A stretch of 63,561 nt of DNA, taken from NCBI GenBank assembly GCA_964510235.1, contig CAZEBF010000002.1, positions 1 to 63,561 of the forward strand, written 5' to 3'. Position numbers and translations under genes: made by a program. The first letter of the stretch is position 1. Each line of letters starts with the position of its first letter. The notes under the pieces are model-generated. The model was not told the origin of the DNA and ran no database searches. It saw only the letters and a list, made by a program, of their open reading frames with translations. Shown here in pieces: positions 961-39,627 of the stretch. The stretch is from an uncultured Candidatus Saccharibacteria bacterium (GTDB taxonomy: Bacteria; Patescibacteriota; Saccharimonadia; Saccharimonadales; CAYUUR01).

Positions 961-1752
961 TTATAGCCTAGTTAGCTCTTTCGATTCGTCGAACTTTGTC
1001 CATATCTCTTTTTCGCCTTCGACCATGGCTTTATCTGTAGTGGTCAAAAATTCTAGTTCGGCGTATGTGCTGTCCAGCTCCTTCTTAATGAGACTTGTAG
1101 CCCTTCTTCGCAACTGATCCGATTCGCAAACAATCAGCACCGAAGGTACAGGTGTATCTTGAGCTTTTTGCCAGATTTCCTGCTCAAAGTAGTAAATATA
1201 ACGTTTGATGGTCTTTCGGAGAGTCCAGTAAGACATGGTGTCCTCTAAACAGTCGAGAAAGTACGCTCTATCCGATTCAGGATCCGTTATAAGGGCGTCC
1301 GGCCGTTGCCTGGGTAAGCAATCCTTGCTGGTTAGCTCGGTTTTGCTGTAGAACTTAAATCGTCCCTTGTGGGTGTGCTTGAAGTAGTTGTAGACCTTAA
1401 AGACGTGGAGCCGGTGCTGTATTTGAGTGTCCTTGGCTCGTTTATCGTGATAAATGCTTCTTAGGTTAGATTCATCACTATACGGCTGTTCCCGAAGATA
1501 CCTAACAGCCCTTAGTGTTAGGTAGTAGGTTGCCGGTCTTCCCTGGATCTTATAGCTGCTGTCGTAGTTCATGCCTAGATAGTCTTGATCTACTAGTATT
1601 TTTAGACGTGAAGTTATAACACGGATATGTTTGGCTTTTTGGCTTTCAGTTATAAGTGCTGCAGTAGCAAAGCGAAATTTGTATAAGGTATTAAGTAGTA
1701 GTATTTGATGATTGTTTAATGGTCGTCGATATTTAGGCTCAGGTTTAGTCAT
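961..1752 (-). CDS. replication-relaxation family protein
   Basis: 263 aa. N-terminal winged-helix-like pattern (LLLNTLYKFRFATAALI...SRLKILVDQDYL...YYLT) is typical of Replic_Relax proteins of plasmids/ICEs. Confidence 0.55.
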   Translation of the reverse strand: MTKPEPKYRRPLNNHQILLLNTLYKFRFATAALITESQKAKHIRVITSRLKILVDQDYLGMNYDSSYKIQGRPATYYLTLRAVRYLREQPYSDESNLRSIYHDKRAKDTQIQHRLHVFKVYNYFKHTHKGRFKFYSKTELTSKDCLPRQRPDALITDPESDRAYFLDCLEDTMSYWTLRKTIKRYIYYFEQEIWQKAQDTPVPSVLIVCESDQLRRRATSLIKKELDSTYAELEFLTTTDKAMVEGEKEIWTKFDESKELTRL

Positions 1753-1945: not shown

Positions 1946-2116
1946 ATGCATGACGAGGGTATAAATCAAGTAGCAATCGACAGTTCAATAGAGCTTCTTC
2001 AGAGTATTCTAGAGTCCGAACAGCAACAATCTATTCACATTGACGATGTAAAAGAGATTGCTTATGACCTGATCAGCTTTTACGAGCTTTTAGCTGAGGG
2101 TAGCGATGAGCAGTAA
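1946..2116 (+). CDS. small acidic protein (56 aa), possible recombination directionality factor
   Basis: ATG 1946 to TAA 2114-2116. Its stop overlaps the recombinase ATG (ATGAGCAGTAA). Below the ORF-track length cutoff. Confidence 0.35.
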   Translation: MHDEGINQVAIDSSIELLQSILESEQQQSIHIDDVKEIAYDLISFYELLAEGSDEQ

Positions 2117-3602
2117 AGAGAGTAATGCCGTTATCTTGGCGCGGGTGTCTAGTAAGGCGCAAGAGGATGAAGGATACTCGTTAGACTCACAGCTAAAGCT
2201 GCTTATGGGCTACTGTACTCAACGCGAGCTGAATGTAGTTAAAGTCTTTAAGATAGCGGAAACAGCATCTAAAGAACAAAGCCGAAAAGTATTCCATGAA
2301 TTACTTAAGTACCTAAAAACCGGTGAGGTATTTCACTTGACCGTCGAAAAGACTGATCGATTGACCAGAAACTTCCGAGACGCTGTCTCGATTGATGAAT
2401 GGCTCGACCAAGATGCTCGACGAAGGCTGCATGCCGTTAAAGAAAGTTTGTTGCTCCATAAGGAAGCAAAATCTGACGTCAAGTTTATGTGGAATATCCA
2501 TCTATCTGTTGCTAAGAAGTACTCCGATAACCTACGCGAAGAAGCTATGAAGGGCTGGGCAGAGAAACTGGCTCAAGGCTGGTTGCCCGCACCGCCGCCG
2601 CCTGGCTATATGACGGTCACTGTTAATGGCAAGAAGATCCATCAACCGGACGCCAACACTACGCCGCTCATGAAGCGGGCTTTTGAAAAGTACCTTGAAC
2701 CAAATCAATCTATTGAGAGCATTGGCAAAGAAATGGAGCTGATGGGACTGCGAACAAAGAAAGGCCGGCCATTTGCCAAAAGCCACGTCCAGCGGATACT
2801 GACCAACCCATTTTACATCGGTATCAACCGCTTTGATGGCAAGGACTATCCTGGCGCACAAGAACCGATTATCGCAAAAGAGATTTTTGAGAGAGTCCAG
2901 CAAAAAATGCGTCGCAAACTAACGTGCAAGTACCGTACTCACAACCCAGTCTTTAAGAACATTATCGTGTGCAGTACTTGTGAACGTATGGTTACGTGGC
3001 AGCTGCAAAAAGGTCGCTACTACGGTGCATGCCAGCGAAAAACACCTGGTTGTAAGCAAAATAAACTACTACGCCAAGACCACCTAGAAGAGAAGGTACA
3101 GAAGATGCTGAGTAACCTTGTCTCGCCAACCCAGGCGGTGATTGAGTGGCTCGCCGAGGCTATGCGCGCCAAACACCAAAGCGCCATCAACGACAACGAA
3201 CAACTAGTGAACTCTATCCAGACGCAGATAGACCGTGTCATGCGTATGGACAGTAACATGTACGAGGATAAGCTGGCAGGAGATATATCACCAAAGCTAT
3301 ATAGCGAGAAACATGATGAATTTGCTGCTCAGACAGCCGCGCTAGGGGAGCGTTTGAACGAGATCGATCAGACACTAGGCAAGGCGTTAGAACAAAAGCT
3401 GGTATTGCTTCGACTCACTCAAAAAGCTGGCACTATATACGCTAAAAAGACACCGATTCAGAAAAGGATCATCATTTCTAAACTATTCCAAGATTTCCAC
3501 TACAAGGACGGAATTCTATCTGTTAATTACACTAAATTCGCGCGAGCAATCGCTGATAACGTTATAGAAACTCATAAAATCATAGGAGGTAAATATGAGT
3601 AA
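2106..3602 (+). CDS. large serine recombinase
   Basis: 498 aa. N-terminal resolvase catalytic motif (VILARVSSKAQ...YSLDSQ, DRLTRNFRD), recombinase domain, Cys-rich zinc ribbon (CSTCERMV...CQRKTPGC) and coiled-coil tail. Confidence 0.9.
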   Translation: MSSKESNAVILARVSSKAQEDEGYSLDSQLKLLMGYCTQRELNVVKVFKIAETASKEQSRKVFHELLKYLKTGEVFHLTVEKTDRLTRNFRDAVSIDEWLDQDARRRLHAVKESLLLHKEAKSDVKFMWNIHLSVAKKYSDNLREEAMKGWAEKLAQGWLPAPPPPGYMTVTVNGKKIHQPDANTTPLMKRAFEKYLEPNQSIESIGKEMELMGLRTKKGRPFAKSHVQRILTNPFYIGINRFDGKDYPGAQEPIIAKEIFERVQQKMRRKLTCKYRTHNPVFKNIIVCSTCERMVTWQLQKGRYYGACQRKTPGCKQNKLLRQDHLEEKVQKMLSNLVSPTQAVIEWLAEAMRAKHQSAINDNEQLVNSIQTQIDRVMRMDSNMYEDKLAGDISPKLYSEKHDEFAAQTAALGERLNEIDQTLGKALEQKLVLLRLTQKAGTIYAKKTPIQKRIIISKLFQDFHYKDGILSVNYTKFARAIADNVIETHKIIGGKYE

Positions 3603-3669
3603 CCAAACTAATAATAATGAATCAAATAACAGGGGTGAGGAGGAACAGGAAGTGCTTCTGCGTTCTATA

Positions 3670-3744
3670 TGGCTGGGGCGGCAGGATTCGAACCTGCGAA
3701 TGCTGGTACCAAAAACCAGTGCCTTACCACTTGGCCACGCCCCA
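3670..3744 (-). tRNA. tRNA-Gln (anticodon UUG), CCA encoded
   Basis: Reverse complement folds as a cloverleaf: acceptor UGGGGCG/CGCCCCA, anticodon arm CTGGT-TTTTGGT-ACCAG, T arm GCAGG-TTCGAATC-CTGC. U1:A72 and G73 are typical of tRNA-Gln. Confidence 0.9.
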
Positions 3745-4044
3745 TTAATGCATAAGTTGTTATATGCAGTTTAGCGTCTGTGCTGGACGGTTTTTGGTAC
3801 CAGGTACCATGTTGTCTAATTTGTTGCGGATGAACCGCAACGGGCAGTGCCTTACCACTTGGCCACGCCCCATTAATGCATAAGTTGTTAAATGCAGTTT
3901 AGCGTCTGTGCTGGACGGTTTTTGACACCAGGTACCATGTTGTCTAATTTGTTGCGGATGAACCGCAACGGGCAGTGCCTTACCACTTGGCCACGCCCCA
4001 TTAATGCATAAGTTGTTAAATGCAGTTTAGCGTCTGTGCTGGAC
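3717..4044. repeat. Tandem 128-bp repeat (2.6 copies) containing the 5' 28 nt of tRNA-Gln plus its upstream flank
   Basis: Copies start at 3717, 3845 and 3973. Three substitutions between copies 1 and 2; copy 3 (72 nt) is identical to copy 2. Confidence 0.95.
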
Positions 4045-12203: not shown

Positions 12204-13215
12204 CTGTCTGTTCCTGTTTCTGTTGGTTGAGGAGTTCGCAGGCAAGCTTGAGACATTCTGATTTTACTTCGTTGAATGGGCGGCCGTCTTCAACCTTGAA
12301 ACCACTGGCATATGGATGGCCGCCGCCACCAAAATGTTGGGCCAGCTTTGCACCGATACCGAAACCATAGTTACAGCGGATTTTGGCAGTTACTTTGTCG
12401 TTTTTGTAGAGCTTGAAGGCTATAGCGATGGCCGCACCTTCAGTCATACGCATATCATCGATCACCAACATTGAGGGATTGTAGTGTGGGCTGTATTGCT
12501 GAATTTCGTCCCACGGAATGGTGACAGAAACGATGCGGTTATCATCATGATATTCCAAACGTTGCAGCAGTTGGCCTTTGTAGCTGAGTAGCTCAGGGCT
12601 TTTGCGCATCATGGCACGGCGGTCATGCTCTAGTCTGGCCAAGACTACGCCGTCTTCAACCAGCTCGGCGATAATATGGATACTTCGCGGCGTAGTTCCT
12701 TCAGAAACCAGTCCTAGGCTATCAGACATGATCGACACAGCAATCATTTCTTTAGCAGTATCATTAAGCGGCCAGCTGAGCTGATCGGCTAGTTCATAAA
12801 TAATCTCGCCTGTTGCCACAGCTGGATGGTCACAGCTAACGGTCGCAAAGCTTATTTGCTGCCCCGACTGGTGGTGGTCAAGCACGATGCACGGCTTGCT
12901 AGCAATGAGAGACTTAGTACCACTTCGTTCAAGTGTATCAAACAGACCATCGGCGCTCATATCAACAATAATACTTACATCAAACTGTCGTGGCACTTCA
13001 TTCTCGACTCTGTCCCAGCCTGGTAGGTAGCGTAGATATGACGGCACATCGACACCACAATACAAAACGGGTTCTTTGCCCATGTCATGTAGGATCTGTT
13101 CTAAGGCCAAGCTGCTGGCTAGGCTGTCGCCATCAGGATTGTCAGCTTGCATAATCACCACCGTAGTGGCTGAACCGAGAATAGTGGCAATCTGGTCAGT
13201 TTCTGGATATTTCAT
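12190..13215 (-). CDS. DHH/DHHA1 family phosphoesterase (NrnA-like)
   Basis: 341 aa. DNPDGDSLAS, DHH and GGGGHPYASG motifs. Confidence 0.75.
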   Translation of the reverse strand: MKYPETDQIATILGSATTVVIMQADNPDGDSLASSLALEQILHDMGKEPVLYCGVDVPSYLRYLPGWDRVENEVPRQFDVSIIVDMSADGLFDTLERSGTKSLIASKPCIVLDHHQSGQQISFATVSCDHPAVATGEIIYELADQLSWPLNDTAKEMIAVSIMSDSLGLVSEGTTPRSIHIIAELVEDGVVLARLEHDRRAMMRKSPELLSYKGQLLQRLEYHDDNRIVSVTIPWDEIQQYSPHYNPSMLVIDDMRMTEGAAIAIAFKLYKNDKVTAKIRCNYGFGIGAKLAQHFGGGGHPYASGFKVEDGRPFNEVKSECLKLACELLNQQKQEQTDETS

Positions 13216-33730: not shown

Positions 33731-35299
33731 TTAGGGGAGTAGCTCAGTTGGTAGAGCACCGGTCTCCAAAACCGGGTGTCGCAGGTTCAAGTCCTGTCTC
33801 CCCTGCCACATAGAACGTTCAGAAAGTTTCAGCACAGTTGCAAACGGTTCGTTAGGTGTAAAACGAACCGTTTTGCCTTTCATTTGGAGGTTCGATAGCA
33901 AGATACTTATAATCTGCCGCTTTTCTTCGTCCGTTGCTACTTCAAAGATTTTATCGCCGTGTTTGAATAGCTGTAACAGATACGCAGACGTGGTGTAGAA
34001 GTTTTGATCAGCGTCTTCTAGCCGTGTCAATTGACCGTCTATACGGGCTATTTCTTGGTCATAGCGACCTTTGTTTTCGTTATAATCATCGGGAGTAATA
34101 CTACCGCTTGTCATTGCGTCAAACGCAACACGGATACGGTGCTTGTAGTCATCACGTTCTGAACGTAGTTTTTTGAGCATATCGTCTTGGAAGCGGTTTT
34201 CGGCTTGGTGCGATGACTGTATTTCAGTTTCAAGCCGTTCTATTTCATCTGCTGGTATGTTCTTGAAGGCGTTGAATACCTGCATAAACTGTGCCGTCAG
34301 ATCGTCCTGCGTAACGTAGGTGATTTTCTTATGTTTCTTACGGGCGTTGGTGCAATGATAGAAGTGATAGGTGTGCTTGTTACCGTTCTGCTGGTTCTTT
34401 TCACGGTATTCAGTCGTTACGGCACAGCCACAGTCAGCACAGGTTATCAAGCCACGGTAGATGAACGGTATGCCGATGAACCGCCGTTTGCCTAGTCTGT
34501 TGCCGTCTAGCACGTCTTGGACCATATCAAACAGTTCACGACTGACAAGCTGTTGGTAACTATGCACATATTCTTTACCGCCGCCTTTCTTGTCTACAAT
34601 TATACCGATATAAAACTTATCACGCAGTATGTCGTGGACACGGCTTTTTGATAAATTGACCTTCAATTCTTCGGCTACCTTACGGCGTAGGCTTTCGCAA
34701 GAATACGCACCAGTGGCAAACAACGTAAACATACGCTTTACGACTTCGGAATTGAAGTTGTCGGGCAATACAGTCTTGTGCCGTGTATCTAGCGTTACGT
34801 TATTGAAGCCAAATGGAGCAACCCACGGTAGTTCGCCACGTTCTAGTTTTGACAGCTTGGTGTTCATACCGTCTTCTTTGATACGTTCAAGCTGTGATTT
34901 AGCAAACATTACCTTGAAGTCCCATTGGATAATTTCGTTTGATCGGCTTTCCTGCGACAGCACAAGCCTATCGTCAATGAAGTGCAGTTTTACCTTGTAC
35001 TTGGTGCGTAGTTCGTCAATCAACACGCTATCACGGAAGTTGCGAGTTATGCGATCAACACGAAATGAAACAATGTCAGTAATCTTATTCTTCTTGGCGA
35101 ACATAACCATTTCATTGAACTTATTGCGAGCCTTGTATTCGCTGCCCGTTTCACTGATCTTGAAAGTCTTAATGACGTTCAAGCCATTAGTCTTTGCATA
35201 TTCCCTAGCACGGGGTAGTTGTATTTCTTCAAGTGACAACCCTTCCGTTTCTTGCCTCTTTGTAGACACACGGGCAAAAATGATGGTCTTGTTGCTCAT
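33731..35299 (-). CDS. large serine recombinase
   Basis: 522 aa. IIFARVSTKRQ, DRITRNFRD, recombinase domain, zinc ribbon (CADCGCAV...HCTNARKKH) and coiled coil. The last 25 codons are antisense to tRNA-Trp. Confidence 0.9.
   Translation of the reverse strand: MSNKTIIFARVSTKRQETEGLSLEEIQLPRAREYAKTNGLNVIKTFKISETGSEYKARNKFNEMVMFAKKNKITDIVSFRVDRITRNFRDSVLIDELRTKYKVKLHFIDDRLVLSQESRSNEIIQWDFKVMFAKSQLERIKEDGMNTKLSKLERGELPWVAPFGFNNVTLDTRHKTVLPDNFNSEVVKRMFTLFATGAYSCESLRRKVAEELKVNLSKSRVHDILRDKFYIGIIVDKKGGGKEYVHSYQQLVSRELFDMVQDVLDGNRLGKRRFIGIPFIYRGLITCADCGCAVTTEYREKNQQNGNKHTYHFYHCTNARKKHKKITYVTQDDLTAQFMQVFNAFKNIPADEIERLETEIQSSHQAENRFQDDMLKKLRSERDDYKHRIRVAFDAMTSGSITPDDYNENKGRYDQEIARIDGQLTRLEDADQNFYTTSAYLLQLFKHGDKIFEVATDEEKRQIISILLSNLQMKGKTVRFTPNEPFATVLKLSERSMWQGRQDLNLRHPVLETGALPTELLP
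33733..33808 (+). tRNA. tRNA-Trp (anticodon CCA), CCA encoded
   Basis: Cloverleaf: AGGGGAG/CTCCCCT acceptor, anticodon arm CCGGT-CTCCAAA-ACCGG, T arm GCAGG-TTCAAGT-CCTGT. Confidence 0.9.
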
Positions 35300-35484
35300 A
35301 TATCAACCTTGCTGTCTTCTATGAGCTTATAGACATCTTCAACCTTGAATAGGTAGGATTTACCAACTTTGTAGGCGGTGATTTTGCCCGATTTTATCCA
35401 TCTGTAAATAGTTATTTTGCTGACTTGCAACAGTTCACAAACGTCTTCAATTTTGTAAAACTGGCTATCTTTCATACTTATCAT
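35296..35484 (-). CDS. excisionase-family helix-turn-helix DNA-binding protein
   Basis: 62 aa. YKIEDVCELLQVSKITIYRWIKSGKI matches the MerR-like HTH_17 pattern. Overlaps the recombinase start by 4 nt. Confidence 0.8.
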   Translation of the reverse strand: MISMKDSQFYKIEDVCELLQVSKITIYRWIKSGKITAYKVGKSYLFKVEDVYKLIEDSKVDI

Positions 35485-35500
35485 TATATATCATTCCTTA

Positions 35501-36658
35501 TCACTTATCTAAATATCTTTGCAGCTTTACGGGCATAAATTTTTCTAGCTGTTCATCTATCACATCAAAGCTGGCTATCTTGCGTTTGGCGAAGTTTAAG
35601 CTGTTAATTTTCCTGTTCAGGTTATACCATTGCTGGTTTGTGAAGTTACCGATATTACGAACATCACGGCTACCAGTTGTTTCCATCAGCGTCTTGTATG
35701 CTACTGCTTCCATAATCGTTCCAATCTGCGTCCGTGGGTTTTGTATGGATAGCTCGGTGAGTAATGCTGGTGCTGTTTTGTCTGATAGCGATATAGCAGG
35801 ATACGTTTCACGGAGGTTGTCTATTTCGTATTTCAGCATAATCTTGGCGGTGCTTTCCCGAAACAGCTCACGAAGCGTCAGATCGCCAGTTTCAATACCT
35901 GCGTCTTTGAGCGACTTCTTGATTTGCCGTCTGCCGATATATCGTGCTTCAACACGCACCATTTCAAACGGGCTGGCAAGCGGACTTTCATCAAACAACG
36001 ACATCTGGCAGTAGTAGTCTTTTTCAAGCAAGCCACCTTCGGTTACTTTGGACTTGGCGTGTTCTTTCAGCTTATCGTAGATACATAAACCCCATTTACG
36101 ACTGTAAAAGTGCATTGCTTCGCCATTGTTGAGGTATTTTTGACCATCGCTTTTCTTCTGTGCGGTGTAGTTGCACTTTGATATGTCGGTGATAACACCG
36201 TGGGCGGTTGAATAGTCTGTGAGTGTGATGTTCTTTGAGTAGTGTATGGTGCTGACAGTAGCGTCTTTTAGCGTATTCGGACCTTTGACGATTACGCCTA
36301 TATTGTAAAGTTTGCGGTGAAGCTGGACACACAGGTAATCAAGATCGCTTTGGCTAATTTCATTGAAGTTATCATTGTGTATGACCTTTGGTGCAGAAAA
36401 CTCAACGTTGAGCGTGATTGGCACACCGCCACGCCGCACAGCCTTGATAAGCGTCAGACGGGGCATATAGTTGCCATCAGCCTTTTCTTTGGCAGTGGGG
36501 TTACGTTCTACCAAAAATGCCTTCTTCGTGCCGAACTGTATAAACGGCGGTCTGAAAAAGTTAGTTACGTCAGTTGCAAATTGTTTATAGCAACCTTCCA
36601 TAATTTCAAAATCTTTACGCCAATCTAGCGTTATTAAAACCGTATCTACCATTTTCAT
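35501..36658 (-). CDS. replication initiation protein-like (phage/plasmid gene II/X, Rep_trans-like)
   Basis: 385 aa. Sits between SpoVG-like and excisionase genes. VDTVLITLD and MVRVEARY resemble Rep_trans blocks (recall only). Confidence 0.4.
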   Translation of the reverse strand: MKMVDTVLITLDWRKDFEIMEGCYKQFATDVTNFFRPPFIQFGTKKAFLVERNPTAKEKADGNYMPRLTLIKAVRRGGVPITLNVEFSAPKVIHNDNFNEISQSDLDYLCVQLHRKLYNIGVIVKGPNTLKDATVSTIHYSKNITLTDYSTAHGVITDISKCNYTAQKKSDGQKYLNNGEAMHFYSRKWGLCIYDKLKEHAKSKVTEGGLLEKDYYCQMSLFDESPLASPFEMVRVEARYIGRRQIKKSLKDAGIETGDLTLRELFRESTAKIMLKYEIDNLRETYPAISLSDKTAPALLTELSIQNPRTQIGTIMEAVAYKTLMETTGSRDVRNIGNFTNQQWYNLNRKINSLNFAKRKIASFDVIDEQLEKFMPVKLQRYLDK

Positions 36659-36920
36659 TGCTCACTACTTCTTCAAACTTAACTGCTACTGCTTGTTCAA
36701 TCGTCAAACCGACTTGCCGACTAATTGGGTAATACACATCAATATCCCTACCCATTACCTTGCGTGTCGGATACACAAGCCGATAACCGCCACTTGGTCG
36801 GCTAAAAATGCCTACCGAGCCGCAATAGATGGTTTCGTATAGCACGAAGCTGGCAAAGCCAATCAAGCCATTATCCGCTTTGACTGGCACTATCTGAACT
36901 TCGCTGATCATCTTCAACAT
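36615..36920 (-). CDS. SpoVG family protein
   Basis: 101 aa. The pattern V.I.PVKADNGLIGFASFVL....VGIF....GGYRLVYPTRK....DVYYPIS parallels SpoVG. Confidence 0.55.
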   Translation of the reverse strand: MLKMISEVQIVPVKADNGLIGFASFVLYETIYCGSVGIFSRPSGGYRLVYPTRKVMGRDIDVYYPISRQVGLTIEQAVAVKFEEVVSNENGRYGFNNARLA

Positions 36921-37050
36921 TTACTTCGCCTTTCTGTAACTTTTCAATTACCTTTTCCCGCTGGTCTATTTTGATCAGTAATTTAGTCAGCAAAAGCATA
37001 GGGTCGGGCTTTGCGACCTGTGTGTCTTGTTGATTTGGTTGCTTGATCAT
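36871..37050 (-). CDS. hypothetical small protein (59 aa)
   Basis: ATG at 37050. Overlaps the SpoVG-like start. Just below the ORF-track cutoff. Confidence 0.25.
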   Translation of the reverse strand: MIKQPNQQDTQVAKPDPMLLLTKLLIKIDQREKVIEKLQKGEVNVEDDQRSSDSASQSG

Positions 37051-37089
37051 ACACCGATGGTATGAAAAAGCTATTTAGCCTAATTCTGG

Positions 37090-37902
37090 CTATTTTTTGG
37101 ACGGAGCAATGTATTTTGGATTGAGCCGCACCGATTTGGTAGTGAGCTTGAATAAGTCTGATATGTTCGTGGACTTTTCAACACGGGCGTTCATCTTTTG
37201 GATAATGTCGTATACCTTATTCCAGTCAGTAGGTTTTTGCAGATCAGGCAGATAGTCATACAGACTATCCCAAACGGCATGGAAGTCTTTGAGTTGCCAT
37301 AGTTCGTGTGGCTTACTAAACATTAGCTTGCAAATAGCTGGTGAGTATTCGGCATTTTTATTGAAGCGTATGGCTTCGTCAGCAAAGAATATGGTGCGGT
37401 TTTTAGTGTCATATCTGGCTGGTTCTACGACTTGGGTTACGGTTGGCAATGACCGTTCGCTACTTTCTTCGTAGTCAAAGATAATGTGGCGTAGTTCGGC
37501 GACCCGATCCCCAAAATCATCCAGTATGTCATCTAGCTTACGTTCATTTTCTGTTAGTTCGCTGATAGATAAATTGCTCACACCCGATCCCCGTGGATCG
37601 TTGAACTGCATTTTGTAGCGTGTCTTGCCAATCCTGACCAACACATCTTCCACGTTTTTTATCCAGCCGTCTATGTATTGTTTGGCAGACTGTAGAAGCT
37701 CAACAGTTCGTTCGTGTTCTGGTTCGGGAGTGGGGTATCCAAAAGTGGGTATACCGAAAGGACCAGTTTTTGTTATCTGGGGCATGGACATTGCACTGGG
37801 CATTCTGGTAGGCACTATGGCAGAATAAAGTTTGCCAAACTTATCGCTGGCTTTACTGCCATCATCATACAACCTTACTAATTCAGCTACATCTTCTTTC
37901 AT
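37090..37902 (-). CDS. hypothetical protein, possible C-terminal winged-helix
   Basis: Start set at MKEDVAEL. The C-terminal 90 aa loosely resemble an OmpR-type DNA-binding domain. Confidence 0.4.
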   Translation of the reverse strand: MKEDVAELVRLYDDGSKASDKFGKLYSAIVPTRMPSAMSMPQITKTGPFGIPTFGYPTPEPEHERTVELLQSAKQYIDGWIKNVEDVLVRIGKTRYKMQFNDPRGSGVSNLSISELTENERKLDDILDDFGDRVAELRHIIFDYEESSERSLPTVTQVVEPARYDTKNRTIFFADEAIRFNKNAEYSPAICKLMFSKPHELWQLKDFHAVWDSLYDYLPDLQKPTDWNKVYDIIQKMNARVEKSTNISDLFKLTTKSVRLNPKYIAPSKK

Positions 37903-37990
37903 ACATCTTCCCGAAACTACCACGCAACAACTGTGAAGTATCTTATACCATAATAACACCTAGCAAGGTGTCAGATGATTGATTGCTAAA

Positions 37991-38287
37991 CTAGCGTAAC
38001 AGCCCGACAACAATTAAAACGTCAAGCACTATCCAAAGTAACTGGACAAAGATGATGGGTTTTTCCTTGTGTTTCAAGCCATAGAATAACCAGATAACAG
38101 CAATTACAAAATAGGATAGCCAAGATACGACTGATACACCATCACTTTTTTCTATCCATATTGAATAAACTTGCGGCAGCGTCATTATCGGACCGAGTAT
38201 GACAGCAAGATAAACCAGCTTATCTATGGAAGATTGCTTTTTTTTGCGTTTTTTGTGCAAATGTTTATGGTGACTATTTACGCTCAT
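37991..38287 (-). CDS. SemiSWEET / PQ-loop family membrane protein
   Basis: 98 aa, three TM helices. TLPQV motif and LFYG...KPII pattern as in bacterial SemiSWEETs. Confidence 0.6.
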   Translation of the reverse strand: MSVNSHHKHLHKKRKKKQSSIDKLVYLAVILGPIMTLPQVYSIWIEKSDGVSVVSWLSYFVIAVIWLFYGLKHKEKPIIFVQLLWIVLDVLIVVGLLR

Positions 38288-38407
38288 TTTTGTATTTTTT
38301 GCTTATGCTAAAACCATTGTATCAAAAGTGCTGGTATTTTTGCAGCCGAAAAAATCGGGTATATAGACGGCGGAGTACATATAGCGGATACGAAGGGCGA
38401 CTACCCC

Positions 38408-39358
38408 CTATGCTACTTCTTTCGGTTTTCCTTCATAAAAGGGTAGTAAATCTTCCAGATACTCTTTGCTGGTAGCGTAGGCATAGTCTTTAGACCAACG
38501 CACTAGCAATAGATTGCTCTGAATTATCATTTCATCATTTGTTATGGCGTGTCTTTTTTGCTTCTTACCAGATTTTAGGGGGTCTATGAGTTCAATGAGT
38601 ATTTCAGGTGTCAGGGCTAGATAGTGTCGTCTTTGGGCGATATGATTGCTGTTCATTTTTTCAATCATTGTTTTACCAGTATTATTGAATACCTCAACCA
38701 CTGGTGTATCTGTAGTTATAAACTTCTTTGAGCCTTTGGCTAGATAGAACCGCCACTTTTTTATGACAAACCACCTATGAAACTCTTCGCATTTGGCAAT
38801 AAGTTGTAGGTGGTTAACATTATCATCAAAAGTTAGTTCATATTCGCCACTTTCAAACGTCTTTCTTGCGTCTTCGATCTGTTCATCGGTTACTTCATAT
38901 CCTTCTTTTTCCAATGCCTCTTTAGCCCCGTCAGTAAAGTTCGGGTGCGACGCCATTAGCGTAGTCATCTGCTTCATACCATCAGCCATAGTCTTATTTA
39001 CTTGATTACGCATTCGTGGGCTTCTAATCCAAAGAGAAGCCATAAACCACGCCAAAATATCTAGCTGATGGTCTGTTAGTGGTTTGTAATTCCATATTGC
39101 GTCAACTATATCGTCATACTCTTTAGCGAACTTATCTTCAATTTCGCCAAAAAACTGCTCAAATACTTGGCTTGTTTCATCTTCTTTTCCGGTTTCAACG
39201 GCGTAGTAAAAATCAGCGTAACAAACGCCACTGTAAGGTTGTGCTTTTATAACTTTGCCTTTTTGAATATCTAAAGTCTGCAACAAATTATCAATCGCAA
39301 ATCGTTTGAAATAAAACCGTGGTGCGAAGTGTTGCTTCTTTGTTATCTGATTTGCCAT
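38408..39358 (-). CDS. DUF4238-like protein
   Basis: 316 aa. N-terminal QHFAPRFYFKRF resembles the DUF4238 signature (HyvPqfyLknF). A -10 box TAAAAT lies 7 nt before the ATG. Confidence 0.5.
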   Translation of the reverse strand: MANQITKKQHFAPRFYFKRFAIDNLLQTLDIQKGKVIKAQPYSGVCYADFYYAVETGKEDETSQVFEQFFGEIEDKFAKEYDDIVDAIWNYKPLTDHQLDILAWFMASLWIRSPRMRNQVNKTMADGMKQMTTLMASHPNFTDGAKEALEKEGYEVTDEQIEDARKTFESGEYELTFDDNVNHLQLIAKCEEFHRWFVIKKWRFYLAKGSKKFITTDTPVVEVFNNTGKTMIEKMNSNHIAQRRHYLALTPEILIELIDPLKSGKKQKRHAITNDEMIIQSNLLLVRWSKDYAYATSKEYLEDLLPFYEGKPKEVA

Positions 39359-39627
39359 ATTCCTATTTTACAACCGTATGAGCCGCAAGCACAGGTGTAA
39401 AGCCATGATTATCGAGTATCGGTTTAAGTATTTCTGATATTATTTCAAAAGGCAGTTTGGGGTTACATATTGCGTCCTTTAGGGGCTGCCAAAACAAATG
39501 GATCCCTTAGTGGGGTCCTTTTGTTTTGTTTGTGACATAGGCTTGGTTCTGCGACGTGGATTTTGCTTTAGCAAAAGATACAAGTCGCTTGTGCATTCGT
39601 GAAGTGCTGCGCACAGAAGCTTGCTTC

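Follow-up and report, generated by a model that had tools for sequence, protein, structure and literature searches.

Work on mycobacterial prophages and on integrative and mobilizable elements describes serine integrases as enzymes that insert DNA within open reading frames (ORFs) via cores of 5-8 bp, and assigns the use of tRNA genes to tyrosine integrases (PMC8092301, PMC10654092, PMC5704250). Serine integrases were stated in a 2014 paper not to be known to target tRNA genes, and a large survey of large serine recombinases (LSRs) is without any mention of tRNA (PMC10083194). When the myxophage Mx8 integrates, its int gene receives a new 3' end, and the enzyme is not inactivated by this exchange (PMC6070905). 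Here, we analyze a stretch of 63,561 nucleotides (hereafter the window) that represents contig C2 of the 66-contig, 0.89-Mb genome G000 of an uncultured Candidatus Saccharibacteria bacterium. This window possesses two LSR genes (LSR1 and LSR2; Table 1), and very probably contains two small plasmid-like elements, each inserted by its own LSR at the encoded CCA end of a single-copy tRNA gene. In the case of LSR2, the exchange runs through the recombinase gene itself.

The boundaries of the element carrying LSR2 (element 2) were derived from the congener G001, which is collinear with the window up to position 33808 and again from position 39486, such that the two flank alignments overlap by 6 bp. 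This base-level comparison sets the limits of the insertion given in Table 1, places the crossover in the last six bases of the tRNA-Trp gene, and identifies the whole tRNA, whose sequence is identical in the empty site of G001, as host DNA. In this empty site, the CCA of tRNA-Trp directly precedes an intrinsic terminator; in the window, the 3' end of the integrase gene follows the CCA, and the terminator resumes past position 39491, 5.7 kb away from its tRNA. The sole identity common to the attachment sites attL, attR, and attB is CTGCCA, the last six nucleotides of tRNA-Trp, which comprise the discriminator region and the CCA. Element 2 is hence bounded by a short 6-bp common core and not by long direct repeats, as is characteristic of serine integrases. 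A search of the remainder of the window for displaced parts of tRNA-Trp, conducted with a 25-mer allowing three mismatches and with all 11-mers, found no fragment of at least 11 nucleotides, and a tyrosine-style tRNA duplication was rejected on this ground. Nor is there, among the genes of element 2, a tyrosine recombinase gene of the kind that marks Islander-type islands. The P arm adjoining the attR core (39466-39491) is partly similar to the tRNA 3' end (about 12 of 18 positions); since an empty site exists, this likeness is more simply read as a half-site that resembles its partner.

Insertion at this position changes the 3' end of the integrase gene. Residues 1-499 of the integrated LSR2 are encoded by the element, while the last 23 residues stem from the antisense strand of the host tRNA-Trp gene. 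Read on the opposite strand, the codon for Trp-498 corresponds to the encoded CCA, and the stop codon overlaps base 1 of the tRNA. In a circle reconstructed in silico, the integrase frame runs over the core into positions 39491-39363, and the native tail is fused in frame to codon 499 to give a protein of 539 amino acids, with a stop codon 4 nucleotides before the start codon of the DUF4238 gene. The crossover core consequently occupies codons 498-499 of a 539-codon ORF, which places the attachment site within the integrase coding sequence. A sister element in genome G002 (6,308 bp) uses the same core at tRNA-Trp and encodes an LSR that is 92% identical; reconstruction of its circle also yields an integrase of 539 amino acids with a homologous tail.

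To these reconstructions we added a comparison of 14 metagenome loci with integrases of 73-96% identity. One metagenome contig of 18.8 kb (L071/L072) is made up of 5,208-bp units repeated perfectly head to tail as a concatemer, with 100% identity between the copies. The unit carries the replication initiator (Rep) and an attP-form integrase, and the contig represents either the assembly of a circle or real rolling-circle multimers. In a 6.3-kb contig (L073), the two element ends are joined. L071 and L073 each encode a 533-amino-acid integrase with a homologous tail in the absence of a nearby tRNA, and their attP sites align with those reconstructed for G000 and G002. Since these two contigs hold the joined attP, the excised form is not merely a reconstruction. 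A further locus (L083, positions 2001-3578 on a 166-kb contig) codes for an integrase with about 92% identity to LSR2 that almost matches the integrated copy L069, and carries a third type of tail right after the same core, with no tRNA or Rfam RNA nearby; this tail may reflect a secondary site or a different P arm.

The native tail of LSR2 is, judged from its substitution pattern, under purifying selection. The ratio of non-synonymous to synonymous substitutions (dN/dS) of the tail is 0.43 between G000 and G002 (gene body, 0.05) and 0.14 between the free forms L071 and L073 (gene body, 0.03), and several synonymous changes lie beyond the roughly 30 nucleotides of the tail that attP could constrain, with many located past codon 11 of the tail. 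The tails of integrated relatives at divergent tRNA-Trp genes vary in length and sequence. An AlphaFold2 (AF2) model of the integrated form depicts a canonical serine integrase through the helix formed by residues 486-494; the predicted local distance difference test score (pLDDT) of the tail is 36-37, with residues 497-522 below 50. The corresponding model of the attP form places a moderately confident helix (pLDDT of about 72) in the native tail.

Comparisons between strains show that the element at tRNA-Trp has recently been gained or lost. Over 13 kb of flanks, G001 and G002 share 99.87% identity, and only G002 possesses the element. A contig from metagenome run X17 joins position 33802 to position 39486, with exactly 5,683 bases skipped and 6 ambiguous letters. 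Since its flank differs at 13 of 178 positions, this contig documents a related strain with an empty site and is not proof of excision in the strain represented by G000. Run X2 contains 5,159 nucleotides of element 2, in which 6 differences occur; the right flank beside it has about 20 in 130 nucleotides, and the left flank is uncovered. This suggests the presence of the same element in another host background. Two short-sided joints in run X2 (33806>39772; 39664>33787, with 29 letters between) were too ambiguous and were not used. At a different tRNA gene of G002, we noted an insertion of 306 bp at the CCA end of tRNA-Tyr (L014, 17445-17750) that has no counterpart in G001 (L013, around position 12337). 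A direct repeat of 8 bp, antisense to the tRNA 3' end, borders this insertion, which holds its own hairpin terminator along with an ORF of about 75 codons and may represent a miniature element, or the remnant of one, that belongs to the same integration system.

LSR1 and LSR2 are full large serine recombinases. Both match PF00239 (Resolvase; E-values of 5.5e-19 for LSR1 and 3.5e-13 for LSR2) and, above cut-off, PF07508 (Recombinase). PF13408 (Zn_ribbon_recom) is passed by LSR2 with 31.6 bits, and LSR1, at 19.2 bits, stays under the cut-off of 25.3 bits; Cys-287, Cys-290, and Cys-316 are invariant in the recombinase alignment, and the zinc ribbon with its conserved cysteines contains the inserted coiled coil that typifies this group. 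Arg-10 and Ser-12 are near-invariant over 33 relatives, as befits a resolvase-type catalytic domain with a serine nucleophile. The AF2 model of LSR2 (mean pLDDT of 81) displays the catalytic domain, the long E-helix (residues 120-153) followed by the recombinase domain (165-264), the zinc ribbon, and a long coiled coil built from helices 350-397 and 403-454. Foldseek relates this model to the integrases of SPbeta (9dxd, E-value of 2.4e-22), PhiC31 (9rah, 7e-16), Bxb1 (9iu2, 2e-15), and LI (4kis, 3e-13).

An earlier sequence-only reading of the window had located both recombinase ORFs correctly and had described each as convergent with a tRNA gene, which ARAGORN confirms for LSR1 with tRNA-Gln and for LSR2 with tRNA-Trp. 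It had also recognized that the last 25 codons of LSR2 (residues 498-522) are antisense to tRNA-Trp, and had considered a crossover inside the tRNA, now placed there by the core shared between attL, attR, and attB, and, on this condition, a recombinase C-terminus that differs between the integrated and the excised state. The latter is seen in the two forms of LSR2 (522 and 539 amino acids) and in its attP-form relatives. The two recombinases had further been called paralogous. They are indeed homologous (27% identity over about 487 residues, E-value of 3e-49), and the alignment includes the sequence blocks quoted in support of this notion; however, the term should not be taken to mean a duplication in this genome, as they fall into different clades and have their nearest relatives in other genomes (86% identity for LSR1, in another family; 92-98% for LSR2). 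From these sequence relationships, elements 1 and 2 appear to be unrelated by descent within this genome.

To place this pair into a broader context, we fetched all recombinase matches from 40 relatives of the same order and positioned 51 ORF ends against the nearest tRNA gene. The stop codon lies inside a convergent tRNA gene in 31 of these ORFs (overlaps of 11-131 nucleotides), and such a gene begins 10-138 nucleotides beyond the stop in another six, so that 37 of the 51 overlap a tRNA or closely approach one. The distance is 263-347 nucleotides in two cases, and the fetched locus contains no tRNA gene in the remaining 12. Three of the latter ORFs are situated at contig ends (L011, L028, L064) and three have tails resembling tRNA antisense (L028, L036, L038). 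Rfam detected a partial tRNA at the junction of L038 and no RNA gene at those of L009, L092, and L083, so the tails of the latter three do not derive from a known RNA gene. Locus L007 (unpublished genome G034) is counted among the 31, underlies none of the other statements made here, and was omitted from the tree described below. Since tRNA genes make up only about 0.4% of such genomes, the adjacency of recombinase and tRNA genes is not due to chance. The targets comprise tRNAs for Trp, Asn, Gln, Thr, Arg, Asp, Leu, Lys, Glu, Met, Gly, Pro, and Ser, and many of the surveyed ORFs possess a Trp codon, the antisense of CCA, at the junction.

A GTDB-wide scan with an alignment of the LSR2 clade returned 32 loci, 31 of which were analyzed; they stem from records of Saccharibacteria, Paceibacterota, Peribacteria/Peregrinibacteria, and WWE3. 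Overlap with a tRNA gene is found in 19 of these 31 relatives, mostly with tRNA-Asn and also with tRNA-Trp, tRNA-Gln(ctg), and tRNA-His. A scan of IMG/VR with LSR2 gave no match. In a tree of 75 sequences, LSR2 groups with the attP-form contigs in a Trp clade, whose sister group is a Gln(ctg) pair, followed by an Asn clade; LSR1 belongs to a separate Gln(ttg) clade. The tRNA targets cluster on this tree, as the target labels require 36 changes compared to a mean of 49.9 in shuffles. The sequence-only reading had proposed a dedicated family of elements that pairs serine integrases with tRNA genes, and had called for a survey of related genomes; the pairing proves to be widespread and extends far beyond the two copies that had prompted the proposal.

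Several observations made along the way concern individual members of this family. A stretch of 31 nucleotides that directly follows the junction Trp codon is 93.5% identical between L009 (around 2955-2986) and L092 (around 3486-3516), although the two integrases are only 30% identical and the loci, both on large contigs without a tRNA at the junction, share no other DNA similarity; this stretch is probably a conserved P arm of tRNA-Asn-targeting enzymes. A search of the 6.8 kb upstream of the integrated sister copy in G023 did not recover the P arm of the attP-form contig L092, and the far end of the G023 element was thus not located. Five records with close integrase relatives (L084, L098, L100, L101, L110) are labeled as metagenome-assembled genomes of Oscillospiraceae, Pseudomonadales, or Gammaproteobacteria; these may be mis-binned contigs of the Candidate Phyla Radiation (CPR) or carry wrong labels.

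At the other end of the window, the stop codon of LSR1 lies 67 nucleotides before tRNA-Gln, and a small ORF bridges this distance (Table 1). Its ATG, positioned 5 nucleotides past a GGAGG motif, overlaps the LSR1 stop; the Trp codon at 3670-3672 is the antisense of the tRNA-Gln CCA, and the frame then reads through the tRNA in antisense. The start of this ORF, its frame (indels are in-frame), and about 15 nucleotides before the CCA antisense are kept in G025, G001, and G006, and the contig of G025 breaks 6 nucleotides into tRNA-Gln. These features place the putative junction of element 1 at the CCA end of tRNA-Gln (about 3670-3675), and the small ORF could represent an integrase tail that has become detached, or else a product of frameshifting. 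Together with LSR1, the gene for a replication-relaxation family protein is conserved in G025, a genome from a different family, and the module formed by the two genes is 73.6% identical in DNA to its counterpart there. At the protein level, LSR1 is 86% identical to the LSR of G025 vs. 58% to the LSR1-like gene of the congener G001. A tandem repeat (3717-4044; 2.6 copies of a 128-bp unit, 98% matches) extends from the tRNA gene, with a unit composed of the first 28 nucleotides of tRNA-Gln and its upstream region.

Serine integrases bind attP and attB as dimers, bring these sites into synapsis, cut a central core dinucleotide, rotate, and religate the ends. Applied to element 2, attP would be centered on CTGCCA and fall within the integrase gene, some 40 codons ahead of the stop codon, and recombination with attB, which consists of the tRNA-Trp 3' end and the start of the terminator, would keep the tRNA intact base for base. 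LSR2 would be the catalyst of this insertion, as suggested by the empty and occupied sites and by the attP-form contigs. The same event would cut the integrase gene, so that the circle specifies the 539-amino-acid protein with its native tail, and the integrated copy the 522-amino-acid protein with an unstructured tail read from the tRNA antisense strand. As the swap point is predicted to lie just past the last structured helix, the catalytic and DNA-binding parts would not be altered. The 62-amino-acid HTH_17 protein is a candidate recombination directionality factor, and Rep would replicate the free circle. Element 1 would follow the same logic at tRNA-Gln, with the junction-spanning codons placed in a separate small ORF that is coupled to the integrase stop. 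The 3' CCA is gene-encoded in all 38 predicted tRNA genes of G000, and tRNA-Gln(ttg) and tRNA-Trp(cca) are each present as a single copy in this 0.89-Mb genome.

A number of points weigh against this scheme, or at least against parts of it. The left end of element 1 lies beyond the contig, and its junction was placed by means of the conserved arm and the contig breaks, and not by an empty site. No circle junction of G000's own element was found among the assembled metagenome contigs, which drop rare forms, so that this negative does not demonstrate its absence. The crossover of element 2 is located to CTGCCA and not to a dinucleotide within it, and the recombination activity of LSR2 is a prediction from its sequence. 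With respect to the native tail, conservation of its first 30 or so nucleotides can be explained by a constraint on attP as DNA instead of by protein function, and the tail alignment underlying the AF2 model of the attP form is only four sequences deep.

In the scheme set out above, the native tail would have a role in the free state alone, with the tail derived from the tRNA as a by-product of integration. Alternatively, the tail swap could be a built-in switch between states: the 539-amino-acid form would be integration-proficient or short-lived, and the 522-amino-acid form would be changed in activity, specificity, or stability, with read-through from the tRNA promoter damping its expression. 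We regard this possibility as open to serious consideration, yet rather improbable. The selection on the native tail and its predicted helix speak in its favor, as do the retention of the design across many clades and tRNA targets, the move of the terminator of tRNA-Trp to attR, and the precedent of the Mx8 tyrosine integrase (PMC6070905). Conversely, the length and sequence of the integrated tails vary with the host tRNA and disorder is predicted for them, the clade of LSR1 has its junction codons split off into a separate ORF, and the hairpin with a U-tract just past tRNA-Trp may halt read-through. This hairpin (fold energy of -21.6 kcal/mol, z of -2.75) is a possible substitute for the displaced terminator. 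A further-reaching idea, which we consider unlikely, is that an attP spanning the gene acts as a sensor of state: the full-length integrase with its conserved helical tail would come from the free circle alone, and integration would exchange this tail for a disordered tRNA-antisense peptide and leave the gene head-on to a strongly transcribed tRNA. If it were true, the integrase would be shut down or re-tuned and the integrated state thereby stabilized; directionality control would reside in the DNA topology of a serine integrase, in a large family that spans the CPR and makes use of a CCA end encoded universally.

That the recombinase genes are instead fixed, domesticated, and immobile host genes is very improbable. 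LSR1-like genes do stand beside tRNA-Gln in both G000 and G001, and some relatives are decayed into pseudogenes with internal stops (L068, L079, L093). The distribution of the tRNA-Trp element between G001 and G002 despite their nearly identical flanks, the free attP forms, and the run in which the element occurs at 99.9% identity beside a divergent flank are at odds with this view, as are the intact ORF with its retained catalytic serine and, for LSR1, a nearest relative in another family. For element 2, the fixed-gene alternative named in the sequence-only reading is largely refuted by the empty sites in G001 and in the metagenome contig. Its further assumption that the enzymes recognize the anticodon arm, under which the crossover would fall mid-tRNA and the 128-bp repeats beside tRNA-Gln would be stacked scars of attachment sites, has even less to commend it and is contradicted for tRNA-Trp. 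The repeat unit does start at position 28 of tRNA-Gln, and the anticodon loop recurs in it as an inverted copy, but the core at tRNA-Trp is confined to the last six nucleotides and left no displaced tRNA fragment in the window, and at tRNA-Gln the conserved arm reaches the CCA antisense and the G025 contig breaks only 6 nucleotides into the tRNA, which points to the CCA end. Finally, the notion that tRNA-Trp is cargo of the element with the true junction elsewhere, as an ORF spanning the whole tRNA might suggest, can practically be dismissed, since tRNA and upstream flank are collinear with the element-free locus of G001 and the gene is the sole tRNA-Trp of the genome.

The remaining genes of element 2 are listed in Table 1. 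The GC content of the element drops to 0.39-0.44. The stop codon of the HTH_17 gene overlaps the LSR2 start, and a Rep gene is likewise present upstream of the LSR in G002, G018, G023, L073, and L083. The SpoVG-like protein is kept in G002 and L073, and the gene for the 98-amino-acid membrane protein is missing from the G002 element. Among the genes of element 2, searches against PHROGs and PADLOC returned no matches to capsid, conjugation, or defence functions; the cargo genes had no match in either collection, and this includes the DUF4238 protein in PADLOC.

Table 1. Features of the window that relate to the two recombinases and their elements.
Feature	Position	Strand	Remarks
Replication-relaxation family protein of element 1	961-1752	-	Pfam E-value 7.6e-10
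LSR1	2106-3602	+	498 amino acids; Gln(ttg) clade; Pfam, alignment, tree
59-codon ORF	3595-3774	+	Overlaps LSR1 stop; antisense through tRNA-Gln
tRNA-Gln(ttg)	3670-3744	-	ARAGORN; host gene, sole copy
LSR2, integrated form	33731-35299	-	522 amino acids; Pfam domains, AF2 model, Foldseek
tRNA-Trp(cca)	33733-33808	+	ARAGORN; intact host gene, sole copy; B arm of attB
attL core CTGCCA	33803-33808	.	Last 6 nucleotides of tRNA-Trp including encoded CCA
Element 2, integrated plasmid-like	33809-39491	- (all genes)	5,683 bp; not in congener G001
Hairpin and U-rich tract	33840-33885	+	32 nucleotides past tRNA-Trp, within LSR2 coding sequence
HTH_17 (Xis-like) protein, 62 amino acids	35296-35484	-	Pfam HTH_17 E-value 1.6e-14; PHROG excisionase families
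Rolling-circle-type replication initiator (Phage_CRI / G2P N-terminal domain)	35501-36658	-	Pfam E-value 7e-6, above cut-off
SpoVG-like protein, 101 amino acids	36615-36920	-	Weak Pfam match, below cut-off
Cargo protein, 289 amino acids	37090-37959	-	Without family match
Membrane protein, 98 amino acids	37991-38287	-	Weak match to PQ-loop/SWEET-like half
DUF4238 protein, 316 amino acids, cargo	38408-39358	-	Pfam E-value 1.8e-30
Detached segment coding for native 40-amino-acid LSR2 tail	39363-39491	-	P arm of attP; circle reconstruction
attR core CTGCCA	39486-39491	.	Comparison with attL and empty attB; circle reconstruction
Original intrinsic terminator of tRNA-Trp	39500-39527	+	Terminator scan; B' arm side of attR

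Serine integrases are described as enzymes that disrupt protein genes by insertion. The rule that tRNA genes are targets for tyrosine integrases only fails here: most of the serine integrases examined in Saccharibacteria and neighboring CPR lineages act at the CCA ends of tRNA genes, and the tRNA stays intact. The family offers a natural panel of related integrases with different, highly conserved targets of 40-50 bp (in tRNAs for Trp, Asn, Gln, Arg, Asp, Lys, Glu, Leu, Met, Pro, Gly, His, and Thr) that is useful for studying how such enzymes read DNA, and suggests integration vectors for CPR bacteria, which have no genetic tools. The exchange of the tail provides a clean test case for whether an integrase can sense its own integration state. 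For genome annotation, island finders that seek a tyrosine integrase along with a displaced tRNA fragment will miss elements of this type, and gene callers will report junction-dependent protein ends for their integrases. In the literature that we searched, with many subscription journals outside its reach, we came across no account of serine integrases that act at tRNA ends; the family of tRNA-end serine-integrase elements appears not to have been described.

Of the known systems, the large serine integrases of phages and integrative and conjugative elements (SPbeta SprA, PhiC31, Bxb1, A118/LI, TP901-1) have the same domain order and predicted fold as the enzymes studied here, and likewise use a short common core without long direct repeats and have a small accessory gene next to int. 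They target protein-coding genes or intergenic sites, whereas the elements analyzed here use the CCA end of a tRNA that stays intact; unlike in the known systems, attP is located inside the integrase coding sequence. Islander-type tRNA islands also leave their tRNA target functional and have the integrase at the tRNA-proximal end, but these tyrosine integrase systems bring along a piece of the tRNA, so that a displaced copy remains as a direct repeat tens of bases long, compared to 6 bp here without duplication of any tRNA fragment. In the SSV-type "suicidal" tyrosine integrases of archaeal viruses and plasmids, the integrase ORF also contains the recombination site, and a tRNA gene serves as the target (PMC7253208, PMC4383910). 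Their integration splits the gene into two inactive parts; in LSR2, only the segment past the last predicted structured helix is swapped and a full-length ORF remains. Integration-dependent immunity of mycobacteriophages similarly involves an attP inside a coding sequence and a changed C-terminus, to which residues adjacent to a bacterial tRNA are sometimes added (PMC8092301). There, the gene that is split encodes the repressor, the integrase is of the tyrosine type, and a degradation-tag logic has been demonstrated, whereas here it is the integrase gene itself that is split. The Mx8 integrase (IntP/IntX) likewise has attP within int, and integration generates a recombinant gene with a new 3' end (PMC6070905). 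As a tyrosine recombinase, Mx8 Int relies on another chemistry and another architecture of its sites. LSR2 differs from it, and from the SSV-type enzymes, by its serine-type domains and fold; a further difference from Mx8 Int is a tail that is derived from the antisense strand of a tRNA gene.

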